Part shown: positions 33 through 23,503 of the stretch, piece by piece
Numbering within the stretch: position 1 is the stretch's first letter
Layout: every line of letters begins with the position of its first letter
Made by a program: the position numbers and the translations under genes
Source: Candidatus Woesearchaeota archaeon
GTDB taxonomy: Archaea; Nanobdellota; Nanobdellia; Pacearchaeales; GW2011-AR1
Reading direction: 5' to 3'
Length of the DNA: 46,493 nucleotides
Assembly (NCBI GenBank): GCA_964424875.1
Contig: CAYRKK010000001.1
Location: 1-46,493 of the forward strand
The notes under the pieces: generated by a model
Told to the model about the DNA's origin: nothing
Database searches by the model: none
The model's input: the letters and a program-made list of their open reading frames with translations, nothing else

Positions 33-932
33 TTAAATTGTATTCAAACCCCCCGACGGAGCGTGTCTAACAATTAGTAAATAAATGCTAATTGTTTTAT
101 TATTAACCCTAATTAATAACTTAACTTGATAACTTATAATTCTTCCGAGAGTTCTTACTTGCATAACTTCCTCCTTACAGGCTTTAAATCTATCTCCAAA
201 TTCATTAGTTAAACTTCCAAACAGACTTTCTCCTCTTCCTCTTTGCCTATAACCGAGCCTGTTTTCAATTAGCCAGTAAAGTTTTCTAGCTTTTCTTCTC
301 CAATAACCATCTGTTCTTCTTTTGTTTGGACATACAATAGGTTCATATCCTTTATTAAACATAACTCCTATCGCTTTGTTTGCATCATACCATGCATCTG
401 CATAAAGTTTACCTGTTCCAGGAGGCAAACATTCTTTCACTGGATCATGTACACTATTAGTTAAAAAACTTACTCCAATTGGATAAATTGTTCCATCTAC
501 AATCCTATTAGCGACGTGAATCTCTACTTCTTGTTTATTCCAAGAAGTAAATTTTGTTGCATCAACAAAAGTAAATGTTTGTTTACATAACTTATCTAAT
601 AACTGCCCTGCTCTTGAGATAATCAATTTTAAACATCTCACAATCTCTGGCTTTTTCTCCCAATAGCTTATCACAGAATGATCTACTCTTTCTCCAATAA
701 CAAGCCTGCTTAATCTCACTTCTGCTCTTCTTAAACTATTTTTCTCAAGTTCTTTAAGAATGATTAATTGAGCATATTCAGTAGGATTATGTTTTGGATT
801 TCTCCCTCTTCCCTCCTTTTTTCTTATTAAGTGCTTACATAATCTTTTCACATTATGAAGCACAAGATTTATATTATTTATTTCTGTTGTCCATCTAGCT
901 AGCATATTAATCACCTCCTTTATGCTAAACAA
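33..932 (-). CDS. DDE transposase (IS4/IS5-like)
   Basis: Candidate catalytic D in FVDATKF and in YADAWYD. A Y-x2-R-x3-E signature (YRQRGRGE) is typical of IS4/IS5 transposases. The ORF reads through the left inverted repeat and the target duplication before stopping in flanking DNA. Confidence 0.8.
   Translation of the reverse strand: MFSIKEVINMLARWTTEINNINLVLHNVKRLCKHLIRKKEGRGRNPKHNPTEYAQLIILKELEKNSLRRAEVRLSRLVIGERVDHSVISYWEKKPEIVRCLKLIISRAGQLLDKLCKQTFTFVDATKFTSWNKQEVEIHVANRIVDGTIYPIGVSFLTNSVHDPVKECLPPGTGKLYADAWYDANKAIGVMFNKGYEPIVCPNKRRTDGYWRRKARKLYWLIENRLGYRQRGRGESLFGSLTNEFGDRFKACKEEVMQVRTLGRIISYQVKLLIRVNNKTISIYLLIVRHAPSGGLNTI
50..58. repeat. Left target-site duplication CCCCCGACG
   Basis: Identical 9-mer at 975-983, immediately outside the other IS end. 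One further C is ambiguous between the inverted repeat and the duplication. Confidence 0.7.
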
Positions 933-17894: not shown

Positions 17895-18881
17895 TTATTT
17901 ATTTACTTTTGACCTTAAAATTTCTTTATATGCCGGCATCCATGTTTCATAAATCATAATAAGATGTTCTTGGTTTCTTACAACCTCATGAAATTTCTTT
18001 CTTAGATCATTGATTATTTCATTAAACTTTTGATAATCTTCTACTACAAATTCTAACTCTGCCTCCCATGGTGCAATGCTTCTAATATAATATTGTGAAC
18101 TGGGTTGATTTTGCATCCATTGAAAAAGTCTTTCTTCATCCTTCTTAGATAATTTTTTGAAATAAACTATTGCTTTATAGAATTCTAATCCTAAAATATT
18201 AAGATCAACAGAAACTCTATAACTAAGAATTATCTCTTTTTCTTCTAATTTTTTAATTCTCGAACGAACTATGTCAATAGTCGATTTAACTTTTCTTGAT
18301 AACTCTAATAAAGAGATTCTTGCATCATTAGCTAAAATATCTAATATTCTGTAATCTAACTCATCAATTTTATTATCAACAATATTTCCTGCAAAAATAA
18401 CATAGTTACTTGGCGAATCTTCTAAGAAAATCCGTTTATTATACTGTCTTGTATCAACCATAGTACCAAGAACTTTACTAACAATTAGGTGTTGCCATTT
18501 AGATAATAATGAGTTAATTTTTTCATAATAATCTGTAATGTTTTTAGAAAGGATGGCAAAAACTAAGTCAAAAGCTCCATCAGAAATTCCCATCCAATAA
18601 ATATCTTTATTTTCCTTTAATTCCTTAAAAAATTTCTCTCTTTCTTCTGGGACATTTTCCAATTTTAAATATGCTTTAAACATATAGTATCCAAGTTTAT
18701 TGGGGTTAATTGATGTGATAAATCCTGTAATGATGCCCCTTTCTTGTAATTTTTGAATTCTATATCTAACTGTTTCTCTTGATTTATTGGTTTTCTTAGC
18801 TAATTGAGTATCTGAAATTCTACAATTTTTATCAAGTTCAGTTAATATCTTTCTATCTGCTAAATCTAATTTTATTTTCAT
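17895..18881 (-). CDS. Tandem-duplicated Lrp/AsnC-family transcriptional regulator
   Basis: Two HTH_AsnC-like modules (DLADRKILTELDKNCRISDTQLAKK... and LDYRILDILANDARISLLELSRK...), each followed by a RAM-like region. Divergent from the radical SAM gene. Confidence 0.8.
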   Translation of the reverse strand: MKIKLDLADRKILTELDKNCRISDTQLAKKTNKSRETVRYRIQKLQERGIITGFITSINPNKLGYYMFKAYLKLENVPEEREKFFKELKENKDIYWMGISDGAFDLVFAILSKNITDYYEKINSLLSKWQHLIVSKVLGTMVDTRQYNKRIFLEDSPSNYVIFAGNIVDNKIDELDYRILDILANDARISLLELSRKVKSTIDIVRSRIKKLEEKEIILSYRVSVDLNILGLEFYKAIVYFKKLSKKDEERLFQWMQNQPSSQYYIRSIAPWEAELEFVVEDYQKFNEIINDLRKKFHEVVRNQEHLIMIYETWMPAYKEILRSKVNK

Positions 18882-18997
18882 ATATTAACAAATTGAGGAT
18901 TAATATATAAATCTTTCCATAAATTGGTTAAAATAAGCTAAAAACTTTAATATACTTCTAATGAGTATTAGTATTAACTAAATGGTAGTAAAATAAG

Positions 18998-20587
18998 ATG
19001 AGTTTAGAAAAAATAAGCACGGAAACTGGAAATGATGAGAGAAATATAGATGGAGCTCCAAATTCTGCTTCAAGAATAAAGTCCTTATTTTTAAGTTCTC
19101 CATATCCCGGAGATCAAAAATTTGGAGGACAACCAACAGGCGCCTTATATTCATTAGCAACCTTAGCAGATAGAAAAGAAAAGGAATGTGGATCAAAAGA
19201 AGGTGTTAGAGAAGACATTGAAGTTTGGTGTCCAAAAGGAACTCCTGATTTTGAGGGTTCTGATCTTGAAAGAAAGTTAATAGATTATGTTCAAACTAAT
19301 AAACCTAAAGTAATTGGTATTAGCACATTTAGTGTTTCTTATGATAATACCCGAAGAATTAGAGATCAAGTAAAAAGTATTTCTCCTGAAACAGTAGTTG
19401 TATTTGGAGGAGCTCATGAAGATAATTCTGTTAAAGGATATAGGGAAAGGGGAGAAATAGATGCCGATTTTGTAATCGCGGGAGATGGAACTTATCTTTT
19501 GGATGAATTGCATAGGACTATTGAGCTTAATCCTGAAGATACTGTTGATGAAATAAAAAAGAAAGTTCAAGAGAATAACAGGTTTAGCGAATTACCGGGA
19601 GCAGGAGTTTTAATGTTTAATACTTCTGATAGATTAAGAGAGATAATAACAAAAAGGGATCCTCTAAGATTAGATCAATTACCAATAATTCCAAGATATT
19701 TAATTGAAAATGAAGATGCATCTGCAAGACAGTTTAGTATTTTTTGGGATAATAAAACTGCTCAAGTAATGGTCGGACAAGGATGTCCTTATGGATGTGG
19801 ATTTTGTAGTGAAGGGATTAAAAAAACTTGGTATGCTGAAGACTCACCAAGAGCAGTCAATCCAGCGAGAGATTTAACTCATGTAGAAACTGAGTTAGAA
19901 CAATTAAAGGATTCAGGATATCAGAGCATATTTTTTGATGATAGCACTTTTTTTGCAAAATCTAAAGATTATATGACTGGATTAGTTAAATTACTAAAAA
20001 AATATGATTTTGAATGGGGATGTCAAACAACTCAAAATTCTGTCCATAATATTGAGGGTCTGATCCCTGAAATGGTTCAGTCAGGTCTTAAATATGTTTA
20101 CATGGGTATTGAGCACTATGACGGCCAGATGAGAGATTCATTTGGAAAAAGTATTGGTGGTGGTAGTAAGTTTAATGGACATGCTGTTGAAGATACATTG
20201 AAAATTCTTAAAGATAATGGAATTAGCACAGGACTTTCCTTAACATTTGGTCATCCTGATCCTGAATCTCCAGAAGAAGAAACAAGAGAGACAATGACTA
20301 CTGCATCGTATTCTATTGCCAGAACTACAGAATTGATTGAACAGTTTCCAAATATTCAAGGGGTATCCCTTAATTTGATAACTTACCATCCTGGAACTCC
20401 AAATAGTGAGAGATATGAAAGAAAGGTAGGGGTTGTTGACTATACCTCTCATCCAAATAAAAGAGAACCTTTCACAAAGTTTGAAGAAGGAATTGGTAAC
20501 CATGCGAAGGGTATGACTGAGGAATTAGCACAACATATTCTTGATTATGCTAAAGAAAAAATTCCGGAGGATAGACTATGGATATAA
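18998..20587 (+). CDS. Cobalamin-binding-domain radical SAM enzyme
   Basis: B12-type Rossmann region (KVIGISTFS ... VVVFGGAHED) followed by the CxxxCxxC cluster motif GCPYGCGFCSEG. Confidence 0.85.
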   Translation: MSLEKISTETGNDERNIDGAPNSASRIKSLFLSSPYPGDQKFGGQPTGALYSLATLADRKEKECGSKEGVREDIEVWCPKGTPDFEGSDLERKLIDYVQTNKPKVIGISTFSVSYDNTRRIRDQVKSISPETVVVFGGAHEDNSVKGYRERGEIDADFVIAGDGTYLLDELHRTIELNPEDTVDEIKKKVQENNRFSELPGAGVLMFNTSDRLREIITKRDPLRLDQLPIIPRYLIENEDASARQFSIFWDNKTAQVMVGQGCPYGCGFCSEGIKKTWYAEDSPRAVNPARDLTHVETELEQLKDSGYQSIFFDDSTFFAKSKDYMTGLVKLLKKYDFEWGCQTTQNSVHNIEGLIPEMVQSGLKYVYMGIEHYDGQMRDSFGKSIGGGSKFNGHAVEDTLKILKDNGISTGLSLTFGHPDPESPEEETRETMTTASYSIARTTELIEQFPNIQGVSLNLITYHPGTPNSERYERKVGVVDYTSHPNKREPFTKFEEGIGNHAKGMTEELAQHILDYAKEKIPEDRLWI

Positions 20588-21831
20588 AAAAAGATTTTAA
20601 GGCAGACTGTTATGTTCAAAACAAAAGTCTGTTTAATAGATATAGAAATTATGAAATAGAAGATGAAGAAGTAGTTGATTTTAATCACGCCTCTTTAGCA
20701 AGACCTTATAAGGAAGTTTTCGATGCATTACAAAAAAGTCTTCCTTCACAAGCAAGACTTTATGCAGGTTCTATAGTGGGCATAAATGACCCGACAAAGG
20801 TACTTTTTGGAAGAAATACAACTGAAGCATTAAGTTTAACTTACTGGTTAGCAGGAGTTAAAGAAGGAAATGTAGTATTAACTGATGCAGAAAATGAGTC
20901 AGTTCTTAGAATTTATAGGGAACATAGAGATCATGGAAATACTAATAAAAGCGACGGATGGTCAACTTTTGCAGATGATGTAATCTCTGAAGATTATGAG
21001 GGTATTAGCAATAGTCATGTTACTGGAACATCAGTTAGAACATCAAAGTTTCTTGGAGAATATAATCCTGAATTAATATTAGATCAAGTTGATGAAAAAA
21101 CCAAGTTAGTATTAGTAAGTCATGTTGTTAGAAATGATGGAAGGATTATAGACATTGAAGAGCTGGCAAGAAAGGTTAAGGAAAAAAATCCGGACACATA
21201 TTTTGCAGTAGACGGAGCACAAGCATTAGGTAATCTTTCAAGAATAGATTTTAATGAATTAGAAGAAGCTGGAGTTGACTTTTATGCAGCAACACCTCAT
21301 AAAACATTAGGTAGTTATCCTTTAGGGATCTTATATGTTGGAGAGAGAGTTAAAAAAAGGATAAATGAATTGAATGGAAAACAGCCGACTGAACAAATTA
21401 TAATGGATGGCATGATTCCTTATGATTATAATATTCCTTCTAATGTTGATTCCGTACTTAATCCTCTTAGATATCTTAGTTTGATTACTACAATAGACGC
21501 CTTAAGAGAAAAAGGGTTTTTAAAAGACAGTGACTTTTCAGAAAAATCTAAACAGATTCAAAGAATAAAAGATTCATTTTATGAAAGATTGAAAACACAA
21601 AATGCAGAAATACTTAGTGAAGGAGAAGAGTATTCTCCTGCAATAGCCTCATTTAGATTTAATGGTAGAAATAATGCTAAGGTAGTGAGAGATCTTCAAG
21701 AACAAGGAGTGTTTTGCTCATATATTTCTGAATCAGATAATATTCGAGTTTCTTTTGAAGTGACAAATAATGAAGGGGATATAGATAGATTTTTTGAAGA
21801 ACTAAAAAATAACCAACATCAATTTTTCTAA
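20578..21831 (+). CDS. Class V (fold-type I) PLP-dependent enzyme, cysteine desulfurase / aminotransferase-like
   Basis: FAVDGAQALG and ATPHKTLG (candidate PLP lysine). Its start overlaps the radical SAM stop by 10 nt (ATGGATATAA). Confidence 0.8.
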   Translation: MDIKKDFKADCYVQNKSLFNRYRNYEIEDEEVVDFNHASLARPYKEVFDALQKSLPSQARLYAGSIVGINDPTKVLFGRNTTEALSLTYWLAGVKEGNVVLTDAENESVLRIYREHRDHGNTNKSDGWSTFADDVISEDYEGISNSHVTGTSVRTSKFLGEYNPELILDQVDEKTKLVLVSHVVRNDGRIIDIEELARKVKEKNPDTYFAVDGAQALGNLSRIDFNELEEAGVDFYAATPHKTLGSYPLGILYVGERVKKRINELNGKQPTEQIIMDGMIPYDYNIPSNVDSVLNPLRYLSLITTIDALREKGFLKDSDFSEKSKQIQRIKDSFYERLKTQNAEILSEGEEYSPAIASFRFNGRNNAKVVRDLQEQGVFCSYISESDNIRVSFEVTNNEGDIDRFFEELKNNQHQFF

Positions 21832-21900
21832 CATTATTATTAAGAATTGATTAATTCCCAGATATAACTTCAAAACATCGCCCCAAACCAGCCCCTTTAT

Positions 21901-21966
21901 TTCACCCAACCACATCACTAATCTTTTCAATCAAATCCATAGCTGTTAAAGAAACTTTCTTTTTTT
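21901..21966. repeat. 66-bp direct repeat, copy 1 (relic of the nnr 3' end)
   Basis: TTCACCCAACCACATCACTAATCTTTTCAATCAAATCCATAGCTGTTAAAGAAACTTTCTTTTTT. It matches 22657-22722 apart from about 4 mismatches. Confidence 0.85.
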
Positions 21967-22518
21967 ATTTTTCTTCCTCCAAAAGAACTTATTTGCAATT
22001 TTCTTTGTTATATATCTACATCTATCAACTTCATTAATCAAATTTCTTGATGCAATTTCATCAAACGAAACCATCTCTATTTCCTTATTCTTATCTTTAA
22101 CATATTTTGCCAACTGAGAAAAATCACCATCTCCTGAAAATAAAACTGCTTTATCATATTTGTCTTCCCAAGCATGATTAAGCATATCTAAAGCTAGATA
22201 AATGTCATCTCCTTTTATTGTATAATATTCTTCATCCTCTTTAGTAAATCTTTTTTGCCTTTTACATAAGATAACTTCATATTTAGGTAGTTTTCTTAAT
22301 CTTGCAAGTAGTTTCTGCTGTTCCTTAAATCTTCTTGGATTAACTTCTTGTTTCAGTGAAGCATTGTAATAAAAAATATTCACTATTTTATTTTTGCCAA
22401 CAATCATTTTGATATAATTTTCAAAATCAAAATGATAATCTGAATATTTTGGATGTAGAGATTTCAAACCATAAACAAAGTTAGCACCATCAATATAAAT
22501 AGAAATTCTTTTTGCCAT
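21946..22518 (-). CDS. NYN-domain (LabA/DUF88-like, PIN-related) putative ribonuclease
   Basis: ISIYIDGANFVYG and VLFSGDGDFSQL motifs. The last ~7 codons and the stop lie inside repeat copy 1. Confidence 0.8.
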   Translation of the reverse strand: MAKRISIYIDGANFVYGLKSLHPKYSDYHFDFENYIKMIVGKNKIVNIFYYNASLKQEVNPRRFKEQQKLLARLRKLPKYEVILCKRQKRFTKEDEEYYTIKGDDIYLALDMLNHAWEDKYDKAVLFSGDGDFSQLAKYVKDKNKEIEMVSFDEIASRNLINEVDRCRYITKKIANKFFWRKKNKKRKFL

Positions 22519-22523
22519 TTTGA

Positions 22524-22600
22524 AAAACCGGTATTACCAAAGTAATAGCCGGGAACACGCTTGCGGTATGTCTGAAGACTTAAGGCAATACCTGTTACCT
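22524..22600 (-). ncRNA. Structured leader or candidate small RNA upstream of the NYN gene
   Basis: On the minus strand there is a nested hairpin, GGTAT...GTC-TTCA-GAC...ATACC (22565-22592). A 10-bp bulged hairpin follows, CCGGCTATTAC-TTTG-GTAATACCGG (22528-22552), then TTTTT and the ATG 4 nt later. Confidence 0.35.
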
Positions 22601-22656
22601 TAATATTCTCAAGATACACAATTATTTAAGCTTTTCTATTATCTGACACCAACCCA

Positions 22657-22722
22657 TTCACCCAACCACATCCCCAATCTTCTCAATCAAATCCATAGCT
22701 GTTAAAGAAATTTTCTTTTTTG
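22657..22722. repeat. 66-bp direct repeat, copy 2 (functional 3' end of nnr)
   Basis: Encodes the C-terminal ...KKKISLTAMDLIEKIGDVVG of the dehydratase gene and matches 21901-21966. Confidence 0.85.
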
Positions 22723-23503
22723 TTAATTCACCTGCTTTTCCATTTATATAAGCAGATGCACAAGCTGAATCAAATAAATCATTTCCTTGAGCAATTAAAG
22801 AACCACAAATGCCTGCTAAAACATCTCCTGTTCCACCTTTAGTCATATAAGGATTTCCGGTTTTATTTATTGCAGTTTGTTTACCATCACTGATTATATC
22901 TACATTACCTTTTAGAAGAATAGTTGTGTTTAATTTTTTTCCAGCAAGTTTGACTTGTTTTATTTTTTCATTTAAATCATCTTTTAATTTTATTTTTGTC
23001 AGTCTTTCAAATTCTTTTTCATGAGGAGTAAAAACAAAATTTGAAAGATTTATTTTTTTATTTAAATTCTTTAAAGCATAAATTGCATCTGCATCTATAA
23101 CTCCCAGTATTTTTATTTTTTGCAGATAATTCTGAACTAATTTAATTGTTTTTGGATTTTTTCCAATACCTCCACCCATAACAAATCCTGATTTATTTTC
23201 TGATTCATTTAATAATTTTTTTAAATGATTATTAGTTAAGAAAGATCCTTTTAATGAAATAGTTATTAAATTAGGTGAAAATTTTGCAATCATATTTGCA
23301 GCTCTTTCAGGAGCGGCAATTTCAACAACGTCAACTCCTGTTTTTAGACAAGCTGTTGCTTGTGCTGCAAGTGCATTTAATGCAGGAGCTCCTGAATATT
23401 TTTCACAACCTCCTATAACAAGAAGTTTTCCAAAATCTCCTTTTTTAGAATTTTTAGGTCTAGGTTTGTAGACTTTTTTAAGAATTGAATTATTGATTAT
23501 CAT
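22658..23503 (-). CDS. nnrD: ADP/ATP-dependent NAD(P)H-hydrate dehydratase (YjeF C-terminal domain family)
   Basis: GKLLVIGGCEKYSGAPALNALAA and GGTGDVLAGICGSL motifs. Confidence 0.85.
   Translation of the reverse strand: MIINNSILKKVYKPRPKNSKKGDFGKLLVIGGCEKYSGAPALNALAAQATACLKTGVDVVEIAAPERAANMIAKFSPNLITISLKGSFLTNNHLKKLLNESENKSGFVMGGGIGKNPKTIKLVQNYLQKIKILGVIDADAIYALKNLNKKINLSNFVFTPHEKEFERLTKIKLKDDLNEKIKQVKLAGKKLNTTILLKGNVDIISDGKQTAINKTGNPYMTKGGTGDVLAGICGSLIAQGNDLFDSACASAYINGKAGELTKKKISLTAMDLIEKIGDVVG

Follow-up and report, generated by a model that had tools for sequence, protein, structure and literature searches.

How does a small gene come to stand between two copies of the end of its neighbor, with no recombinase nearby that could have placed it there? 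This question is raised by a stretch of 46,493 nucleotides (the window) on contig CAYRKK010000001.1 of a Candidatus Woesearchaeota archaeon, in which the 3′ end of nnr, the gene for NAD(P)H-hydrate dehydratase, recurs on the far side of a gene for a NYN-domain nuclease. The initial annotation had taken this arrangement for the footprint of an integrating element that targets the 3′ end of a gene, carries a replacement copy of that end, and has since lost its integrase. Our comparisons now lead to a different picture, in which a promoter, a structured leader RNA and the NYN nuclease open reading frame (ORF) make up a self-contained gene cassette of 756 bp that DPANN archaea exchange horizontally. 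What looked like the remnant of an integrative element is the whole element, and the duplicated nnr tail is the scar of its insertion, as had been proposed, which recombination by the host may have left behind.

The duplicated nnr end and the cassette between its copies

The two copies of the repeat are 65 nt long and identical at 61 positions, with a start-to-start spacing of 756. A length of about 66 bp had been noted initially; the alignment bore out the distance and the four mismatches, and only the 66th base turned out to be mismatched. A degenerate pattern spanning the repeat has these two matches in the window and none in 100 dinucleotide-preserving shuffles, and the window holds neither a third copy of the repeat nor a second NYN copy. 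The same arrangement was found at 100% identity in ENA MEGAHIT, JGI and Logan assemblies of different samples, that is, in at least eight independent assemblies from three pipelines, with long contigs spanning both copies. The repeat is real, goes beyond chance and is no assembly artefact. A collapsed or duplicated overlap, which the initial annotation had named as an objection, is practically out of the question, as four positions distinguish the copies, which are 756 bp apart and separated by unique sequence. The one point in its favor is that short contigs from four other assemblies end no more than 20 nt from a repeat edge (L003 at its end, L004 at its start, L178 and L179 at their ends; comparison loci are given here by L numbers, with coordinates after a colon), and such contig ends could mean that the repeat forks the assembly graph or that another allele coexists.

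The proximal copy ends the nnr gene with ...KKKISLTAMDLIEKIGDVVG and the stop codon. The distal copy, read in the nnr frame, still encodes an nnr end, as initially claimed: it gives KKKVSLTAMDLIEKISDVVG and a stop, and is itself preceded by a stop codon. Two amino acids differ between the copies, Ile to Val and Gly to Ser (the latter by two changes in one codon), and both the Val and the Ser state of the distal copy occur in natural nnr homologues. By its sequence, the distal copy resembles an nnr end that once was functional, as would be expected of an allele from another strain. The NYN gene uses the same DNA in another frame, reading the first 20 nt of the distal copy as the end of its own protein (...FFWRKKN-KKRKFL and stop), and its final six codons and stop codon lie inside the repeat.

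In the direction of the genes, the nnr stop is followed by a 20-nt filler, a putative promoter, 19 variable nucleotides, the leader RNA of about 84 nt and the NYN ORF (Table 1), and the unit between the copies thus consists of the NYN gene and a structured upstream region, just as the initial annotation had described it. The promoter assignment relies on the resemblance of GAAAAGCTTAAATAA to the archaeal consensus for a transcription factor B recognition element (BRE) and TATA box, and most of 80 genome loci have the motif CGAAAGnCTTAAATAA some 25 nt ahead of the leader.

This module of about 0.7 kb is widespread. Leader and ORF recur in at least 74 loci of DPANN archaea, nearly all of them in differing gene neighborhoods, and promoter motif and leader precede the ORF in 80 genome loci. 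Clustering of the 149 nearest neighbor ORFs of 82 loci gave 139 clusters, and therefore almost every copy has a neighborhood of its own. The locus closest to that of the window, L170, has its cassette at the very same site; the next closest NYN relatives (84–85% amino acid identity) stand in unrelated contexts, and among 80 metagenome nnr loci (relatives of at most 55% identity, without synteny) none has a NYN gene beside nnr. Several metagenome-assembled genomes (MAGs) contain two copies on different contigs, which are 70–85% identical. Similarity between cassettes is confined to the stretch from promoter to ORF end, stopping near the promoter and right after the FFWR motif of the protein, and no conserved sequence was detected outside this span. 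The cassette is mobile and horizontally exchanged.

Table 1. Features of the nnr–NYN region and of its accessory neighborhood in the window.
Feature	Position	Strand	Remarks
nnr (NAD(P)H-hydrate dehydratase)	22658..23503	-	target with duplicated 3′ end; PF01256, E 1.4e-53; TIGR00196
Proximal repeat copy	22657..22721	-	last 62 nt of nnr including stop, plus one base, plus 2 nt upstream
Spacer downstream of the nnr repeat copy, before the cassette			letters TGGGTTGG
Junction filler TGGGTTGGTGTCAGATAATA	22637..22656	-	20 nt; partly echoes preceding GGTTGGGTGAA; unalignable with the equivalent stretch of L170
Putative BRE/TATA-like promoter GAAAAGCTTAAATAA	22622..22636	-	archaeal consensus
Structured leader RNA	22519..22602	-	~84 nt; P1 hairpin, P2, pseudoknot, P3 hairpin, U-tract, ATG
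NYN-domain ORF, predicted nuclease	21946..22518	-	190 aa; PF01936, E 2.7e-21
Distal repeat copy	21901..21965	-	orphan nnr 3′ end
Aminotransferase side just beyond the distal copy			letters ATAAAGGGG
Accessory context	17895..21900	.	69-nt spacer and three-gene module; absent from L170, L172 and L174
Class-V aminotransferase	20578-21831	+	
B12-binding radical-SAM enzyme	18998-20587	+	
Double-HTH (helix-turn-helix) AsnC/MarR-like regulator	17895-18881	-	

Orthologous loci show what the site looks like without the insertion. In L172 and L174, whose nnr products are 65–68% identical to that of the window, the pair SDR–nnr directly faces a convergent TIM gene, and these are empty sites, which supports the earlier view that the NYN unit is an insertion. 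The nnr orthologue of L170 is much closer (85% amino acid identity, as compared with 65–71% for the others), and here the gene order is SDR, nnr, NYN, a 128-aa ORF and TIM. As in the window, the cassette of L170 starts about 20 nt past the nnr stop, and there is no second nnr end. The window and L170 lose homology at 21956, where the distal copy has its inner edge, and regain it at TIM (17765). In between, the window has in addition the distal copy, 69 nt, and the genes for an aminotransferase, a B12-binding radical-SAM enzyme and a double-HTH regulator. This three-gene module (17895-21831) is a rare accessory cluster with only 19 homologues at E≤1e-60 among 5.8 billion proteins; it is kept as a cluster in L180, and elsewhere it forms a unit that is not beside nnr. 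As a side observation, an ORF at 33-932 (- strand) of the window, 21 kb from the repeat, has a weak match to DDE transposases of the IS4/IS5 type (PF01609, 24.7 bits; NF033579), and no link between this ORF and the NYN cassette was found.

The identity between the window and L170 changes abruptly along the locus. It amounts to 92.3% in SDR and to 88.2% in nnr, where it is mosaic, with 77–99% per 100 nt, and where the last 200 nt reach 92–97% as opposed to 77–83% in mid-gene. The first ~15 nt after the nnr stop are unalignable, the spacer is 74.5% identical, and the 46 nt of the promoter zone are 87% identical. Identity then rises to 98.9% both in the leader (one difference in 88 nt) and in the NYN ORF (six differences in 553 nt, three of them non-synonymous). 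As the cassette is 98.9% identical and its flanks are only 88–92% identical, the tract from approximately the transcription start to the ORF end has recently been exchanged between the lineages; the low divergence is not a result of purifying selection. The proximal copy of the repeat has seven differences from the nnr end of L170 and the distal copy about ten, and since the two copies differ from each other at only four sites, the duplication looks younger than the split of the lineages.

The nnr locus is not the only one with such a scar. Comparing the surroundings of each NYN gene with themselves revealed bracketing direct repeats in about a dozen further loci, with lengths of 19–198 nt and identities of 80–98%. 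Examples are L047 (65 nt, 98%), L049 (69 nt, 97%), L019 (40 nt, 97.5%), L035 (42 nt), L029 (47 nt), L024 (38 nt), L055 (88 nt), L040 (86 nt), L042 (44 nt or more) and L068 (56 nt). The sequences of the repeats are all unrelated, and each derives from the local flank, be it the 3′ end of a gene, the 5′ end of a gene, a promoter or an intergenic stretch. At a bit score of at least 35, repeats were obtained for 11 of 67 NYN loci (~16%) and for 3 of 155 control ORFs (2%), the controls being other ORFs of similar size from the same loci in the same search (Fisher p = 1.6e-4). Most copies of the cassette, including that of L170 at the very same site, have no flanking repeats. Where repeats are present, the bounds vary: the upstream copy ends 109–173 nt before the ATG, and the start of the downstream copy ranges from -34 to +60 nt relative to the stop. 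The ends of the cassette are imprecise, with 0–50 nt of filler upstream and 0–60 nt downstream, and the inserts of L019, L035, L038, L067 and L082 contain extra DNA. An extreme case is L068:3803-5360, where two cassettes that are 73% identical (C1 and C2) stand in tandem at the 5′ end of pgk, followed by an intact pgk. With X as the first 75 nt of pgk, the order is X and promoter, C1, X and promoter, C2, X; the pgk start is thus present in three copies of about 75 nt, the two X-and-promoter segments are 95% identical, and each NYN stop overlaps a pgk ATG (ATGA). This array fits repeated homologous integration or a swapping of units. Direct repeats were also seen around two of the control genes (L079:4742-6152 and L084:1971-2689), one for a protein with a CBS domain (repeats of 44 nt, 98%) and one for an unknown protein of 173 aa (50 nt, 86%), and therefore duplication-flanked gene insertion may be general in these genomes.

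A leader RNA tied to a NYN nuclease

The region between promoter and start codon is a real structured RNA, as comparative data demonstrate. A covariance model, R1, was built from 27 leaders and used to search 620 kb; at E<5e-4 it yielded 74 matches, one per locus and always just upstream of the NYN start. In the window it matches at 22517-22606 with 110.8 bits and nowhere else. The counted structure has four helices, namely P1 with 7 bp, P2 with 3 bp and a UUCG-type loop (UUCA in the window), P3 with 10 bp, and a pseudoknot of 4 bp, in which the P1 loop GGKA pairs with a downstream UMCC (GGUA with UACC in the window). In the alignment of 74 sequences, 96.7% of the cells are paired and compensatory changes are present in 20 of the 24 pairs, while none of 500 shuffles was as good and slid partners reached at most 44.5% paired. 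The pseudoknot is not part of model R1, and one of its pairs occurs as GC 47 times, as UA 25 times and as CG once, without a single unpaired cell. Covariation thereby supports P1, P2, P3 and the pseudoknot. In most copies, a U-tract lies between P3 and the ATG, an arrangement compatible with a putative archaeal terminator or attenuator.

The structure becomes visible only through such comparative data, because folding of the spacer as a single sequence was no better than folding of shuffles (z = -0.2 and -1.4). With RNAalifold, a MAFFT alignment yielded P1 alone, and a hand-set structure, the covariance model and the counting of pairs were needed for the remainder. Rfam (15) has no match at gathering score in the whole window, and between 22400 and 22760 only chance-level matches appear at E up to 10. 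Our literature searches (NYN with DPANN, transposase with archaea, RNA motif) brought up no paper describing the leader and nothing else that was relevant.

Variants of the leader occur. Between leader and ATG, 60–270 nt are inserted in three loci (L021:1-356, L054:3751-4001, L076:3857-4001); an insertion of about 57 nt separates P1 from P2 in L185 (L185:4850-5000) and L186; and L044:3895-4000 has a duplication within P3. In five different MAGs we came across a second conserved non-coding element, ‘U’, of about 230–400 nt directly upstream of the NYN promoter (L022:3410-3887, L026:3612-3888, L040:2172-2331, L041:3582-3868, L064:3441-3870). It is composed of GC-rich helices with variable insertions and has a terminal hairpin CTTCTTTCTTT..AAGAAAGAAG followed by GAAATAATCTTTT; partial copies are found elsewhere in the same loci, and a degenerate ‘U’ hairpin precedes the cassette in L010, L016, L018, L062, L074, L076 and L079. 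‘U’ has no match in Rfam and contains no ORF.

The protein that is encoded downstream of the leader belongs to the NYN/LabA-like family PF01936, with which it shares sequence (77.1 bits against a cut-off of 24.2), the modeled fold and the conserved acidic residues; its role as a nuclease is predicted. Apart from a short basic tail, it is simply a NYN domain (AlphaFold pLDDT, the predicted local distance difference test, 87.9). The best matches of Foldseek in the PDB are 2QIP (template modeling score, TM, 0.71/0.83), which is VPA0982, a LabA-like protein without assigned function, and the NYN domain of MARF1 (TM 0.60/0.75), which we take to be an RNase. D10, D104, D105, D130 and D132 are invariant across 29 homologues, and PADLOC lists relatives as HEC-09 or LabA-like NYN nuclease among candidate defense genes. 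Neither Pfam nor the fold search gave any likeness to integrases or transposases. More than 300 homologues were found, nearly all in MAGs of Pace-, Woese- and Nanoarchaeota; the best 104 are 65–85% identical, and aligned homologues with 60–85% amino acid identity are highly conserved. Within the family, the proteins of the cassettes form a distinct, very conserved DPANN subfamily that always has the leader RNA upstream. In the 29 aligned homologues the conserved body ends with ...KKIANKFFWR, beyond which the tails vary in length and sequence, and therefore the ORF runs into whatever DNA lies downstream for its stop; in the window, the tail is made of A-rich sequence and the distal repeat. Two further NYN genes, for proteins of 231 and 197 aa, lie in the syntenic region of L172 (L172:4518-5213, L172:11098-11691) in operon-like arrays and without a leader, and these represent another NYN subfamily.

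How the cassette may have reached nnr

From these comparisons we infer a route of insertion, and the explanation that we favor, with slightly better than even confidence, is that a recent (re)insertion of the cassette by recombination of the host left the repeat as its scar, either through homology-anchored illegitimate recombination or through integration of the Campbell type with a single crossover. DNA of a related strain would have carried the nnr 3′ end, the spacer and the cassette, it would have paired with the resident nnr through their homology, and its far end would have been joined illegitimately within a run of A (AAAAAAG) that lies 65 nt ahead of the stop of the resident nnr. The 3′ joint indeed lies in an A-run that the NYN tail and nnr have in common. 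A circle carrying those 65 nt could also have entered by Campbell-type integration. The proximal copy would then have arrived with the cassette, and the distal copy would be the former gene end of the resident. Of the replacement copy that the initial annotation had postulated, one part can thus be kept, in that one of the copies may have come with the cassette, as the natural occurrence of the Val and Ser states suggests; an integrase element as its vehicle has to be given up. Recombination between an allele with and an allele without the cassette would fit in that the identity to L170 is mosaic, the ends are imprecise and flanking DNA was co-transferred to a variable extent, the joint lies in an A-run, the cassettes of L068 stand in tandem, and the copy of L170 is free of a duplication. 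These traits, together with homology on one side only (nnr), are those by which the locus resembles homology-facilitated illegitimate or Campbell-type recombination.

Several points weigh against this explanation. Homology-facilitated illegitimate recombination, a term in use in the literature for a process reportedly described by de Vries and Wackernagel in 2002, usually deletes recipient DNA in bacteria and does not duplicate it, and it is not known from DPANN archaea. Neither a donor allele nor an empty allele with nnr next to the aminotransferase gene was found by exact look-ups of the nnr and aminotransferase proteins, so that the direction proposed for the event is tentative. With only four differences between the copies, the argument that the distal copy was a functional allele is statistically weak. 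Furthermore, the repeat edge lies exactly one base past the stop codon both in the window (22657) and in L019 (L019:3411), and the repeat of L068 starts at the pgk start codon (L068:3803). Random recombination does not predict repeat edges at ORF boundaries, and no mechanism that we considered explains them. Finally, the youngest-looking duplications, those of L047 and L049, are without microhomology at the joints and resemble clean target-site duplications.

These two loci speak for a transposition-like process, in which the cassette would be inserted by its own NYN protein or a factor in trans at staggered cuts 20–200 nt apart, with fill-in producing long and variable target-site duplications. 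Direct repeats of local sequence flank the cassette at numerous unrelated sites, more often than they flank controls, and an ORF that reaches the very end of its unit is typical of compact insertion sequences. The closest likeness is to IS1634 and IS1549, small single-gene units with long target duplications of variable length, whose ORFs also extend to the unit end. For these elements, direct repeats of 8–514 bp have been reported, with an unknown mechanism (PMC2266710). We nevertheless consider this process rather unlikely: unlike those elements, the cassette has no DDE transposase, as its protein has a NYN fold alone, with 2QIP and the MARF1 domain as the nearest structures, and it lacks terminal inverted repeats and fixed ends. 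Only a minority of the copies (the ~16% given above) are flanked, copies within a genome are not near-identical, as a burst of transposition would leave them, and the window and L170 share both the site and a homologous promoter zone, with the duplication in the window only. In a search for RNA-guided targeting, neither the leader nor the spacer had complementarity to the duplicated targets beyond chance, and a weak likeness between BRE/TATA and the reverse complement of the ...NKFFW coding sequence, considered as terminal inverted repeats, is lost at the synonymous sites of other copies; both ideas were rejected. In a bolder version, leader RNA and NYN ORF together would be an autonomous mobile element of a new kind, in which nuclease and RNA cooperate to move the unit, possibly via a transcript, with long variable target duplications on insertion. 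That the exchanged tract extends approximately from the transcription start to the A-rich ORF end can be cited for this version, which we think improbable.

Two explanations remain. The cassette could be a bystander, and the orphan nnr end would have been dragged in together with the 4.2-kb module of HTH regulator, radical-SAM enzyme and aminotransferase from a donor in which nnr abutted the module; one crossover would have taken place within TIM or beyond it, and an illegitimate joint would have formed in the A-run that follows NYN. The DNA that the window has in excess of L170 is exactly the distal copy, the 69 nt and the three genes, the module moves as a unit, as in L180, its GC content is slightly higher than that of the flanks (0.31 versus 0.27–0.29), and the distal copy looks like a functional allele. 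Yet this does not account for the cassette-flanking repeats at about 12 other unrelated NYN loci, a donor with an nnr–aminotransferase junction was not found (the best aminotransferase homologues are at most 63% identical and stand in other contexts), and mechanistically it is the mirror image of the recombination that we favor and not an independent process; we judge its chances to be small. Even smaller are those of the initial reading, a decayed element with attL and attR in which integrase and all other cargo were deleted later. A duplicated 3′ end, an intact gene and cargo in between are what elements with tyrosine recombinases leave behind, and the empty sites of L172 and L174 agree with it; in these respects the locus is like att-duplicating integrative elements, such as tyrosine-recombinase islands and those of the archaeal pNOB8 type. 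It differs in that no recombinase was found in the unit, in the Pfam gene calls over 10 kb on each side or among the scanned ORFs of the window, and the earlier statement that no integrase is present at the site is thereby upheld. The insert is the same 0.7-kb module as in at least 74 loci, with no adjacent recombinase at the loci inspected, and the NYN protein has no relatives in the viral contigs of IMG/VR. The repeats differ in sequence and length from site to site, which leaves no common att core, their inner edges lie tight against the cassette, whose ends are imprecise, with no room for a deleted element, and the cassette of L170 has no second copy.

Possible function and relation to known systems

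The leader probably controls or neutralizes the nuclease, by analogy with type III toxin–antitoxin systems or abortive-infection modules. A selfish or defensive role of this kind would explain the patchy, mobile distribution of the cassette. The leader could equally be an autoregulatory element. To our knowledge, few mobile elements have been recognized in the tiny genomes of DPANN archaea, and a compact module whose location differs in nearly every genome, and beside which duplications of local sequence turn up time and again, points to a possible route of gene mobility in this group. The loci of the cassette form a natural set for studying how genes enter archaeal chromosomes without an integrase or a transposase.

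The systems that come closest in design are the type III toxin–antitoxin systems ToxIN, CptIN and TenpIN. Like the cassette, they combine a promoter, a pseudoknotted RNA, a terminator-like U-tract and a small endonuclease gene, and they are compact, patchy in distribution and horizontally mobile. They differ in having their RNA as a tandem array of repeats that the toxin processes, whereas each cassette has a single leader, and in the ToxN/Kid-like fold of their nucleases, whereas the protein of the cassette has a NYN/PIN-like fold; the cassette is not a type III toxin–antitoxin system as defined. As a kind, mobile gene cassettes with target duplications are already known. What is new here is the leader, an undescribed candidate RNA motif that has strong support from covariation and a constant partner protein; in analogy to the antitoxin RNAs of type III systems, it may be a regulator or an antitoxin of the NYN nuclease.

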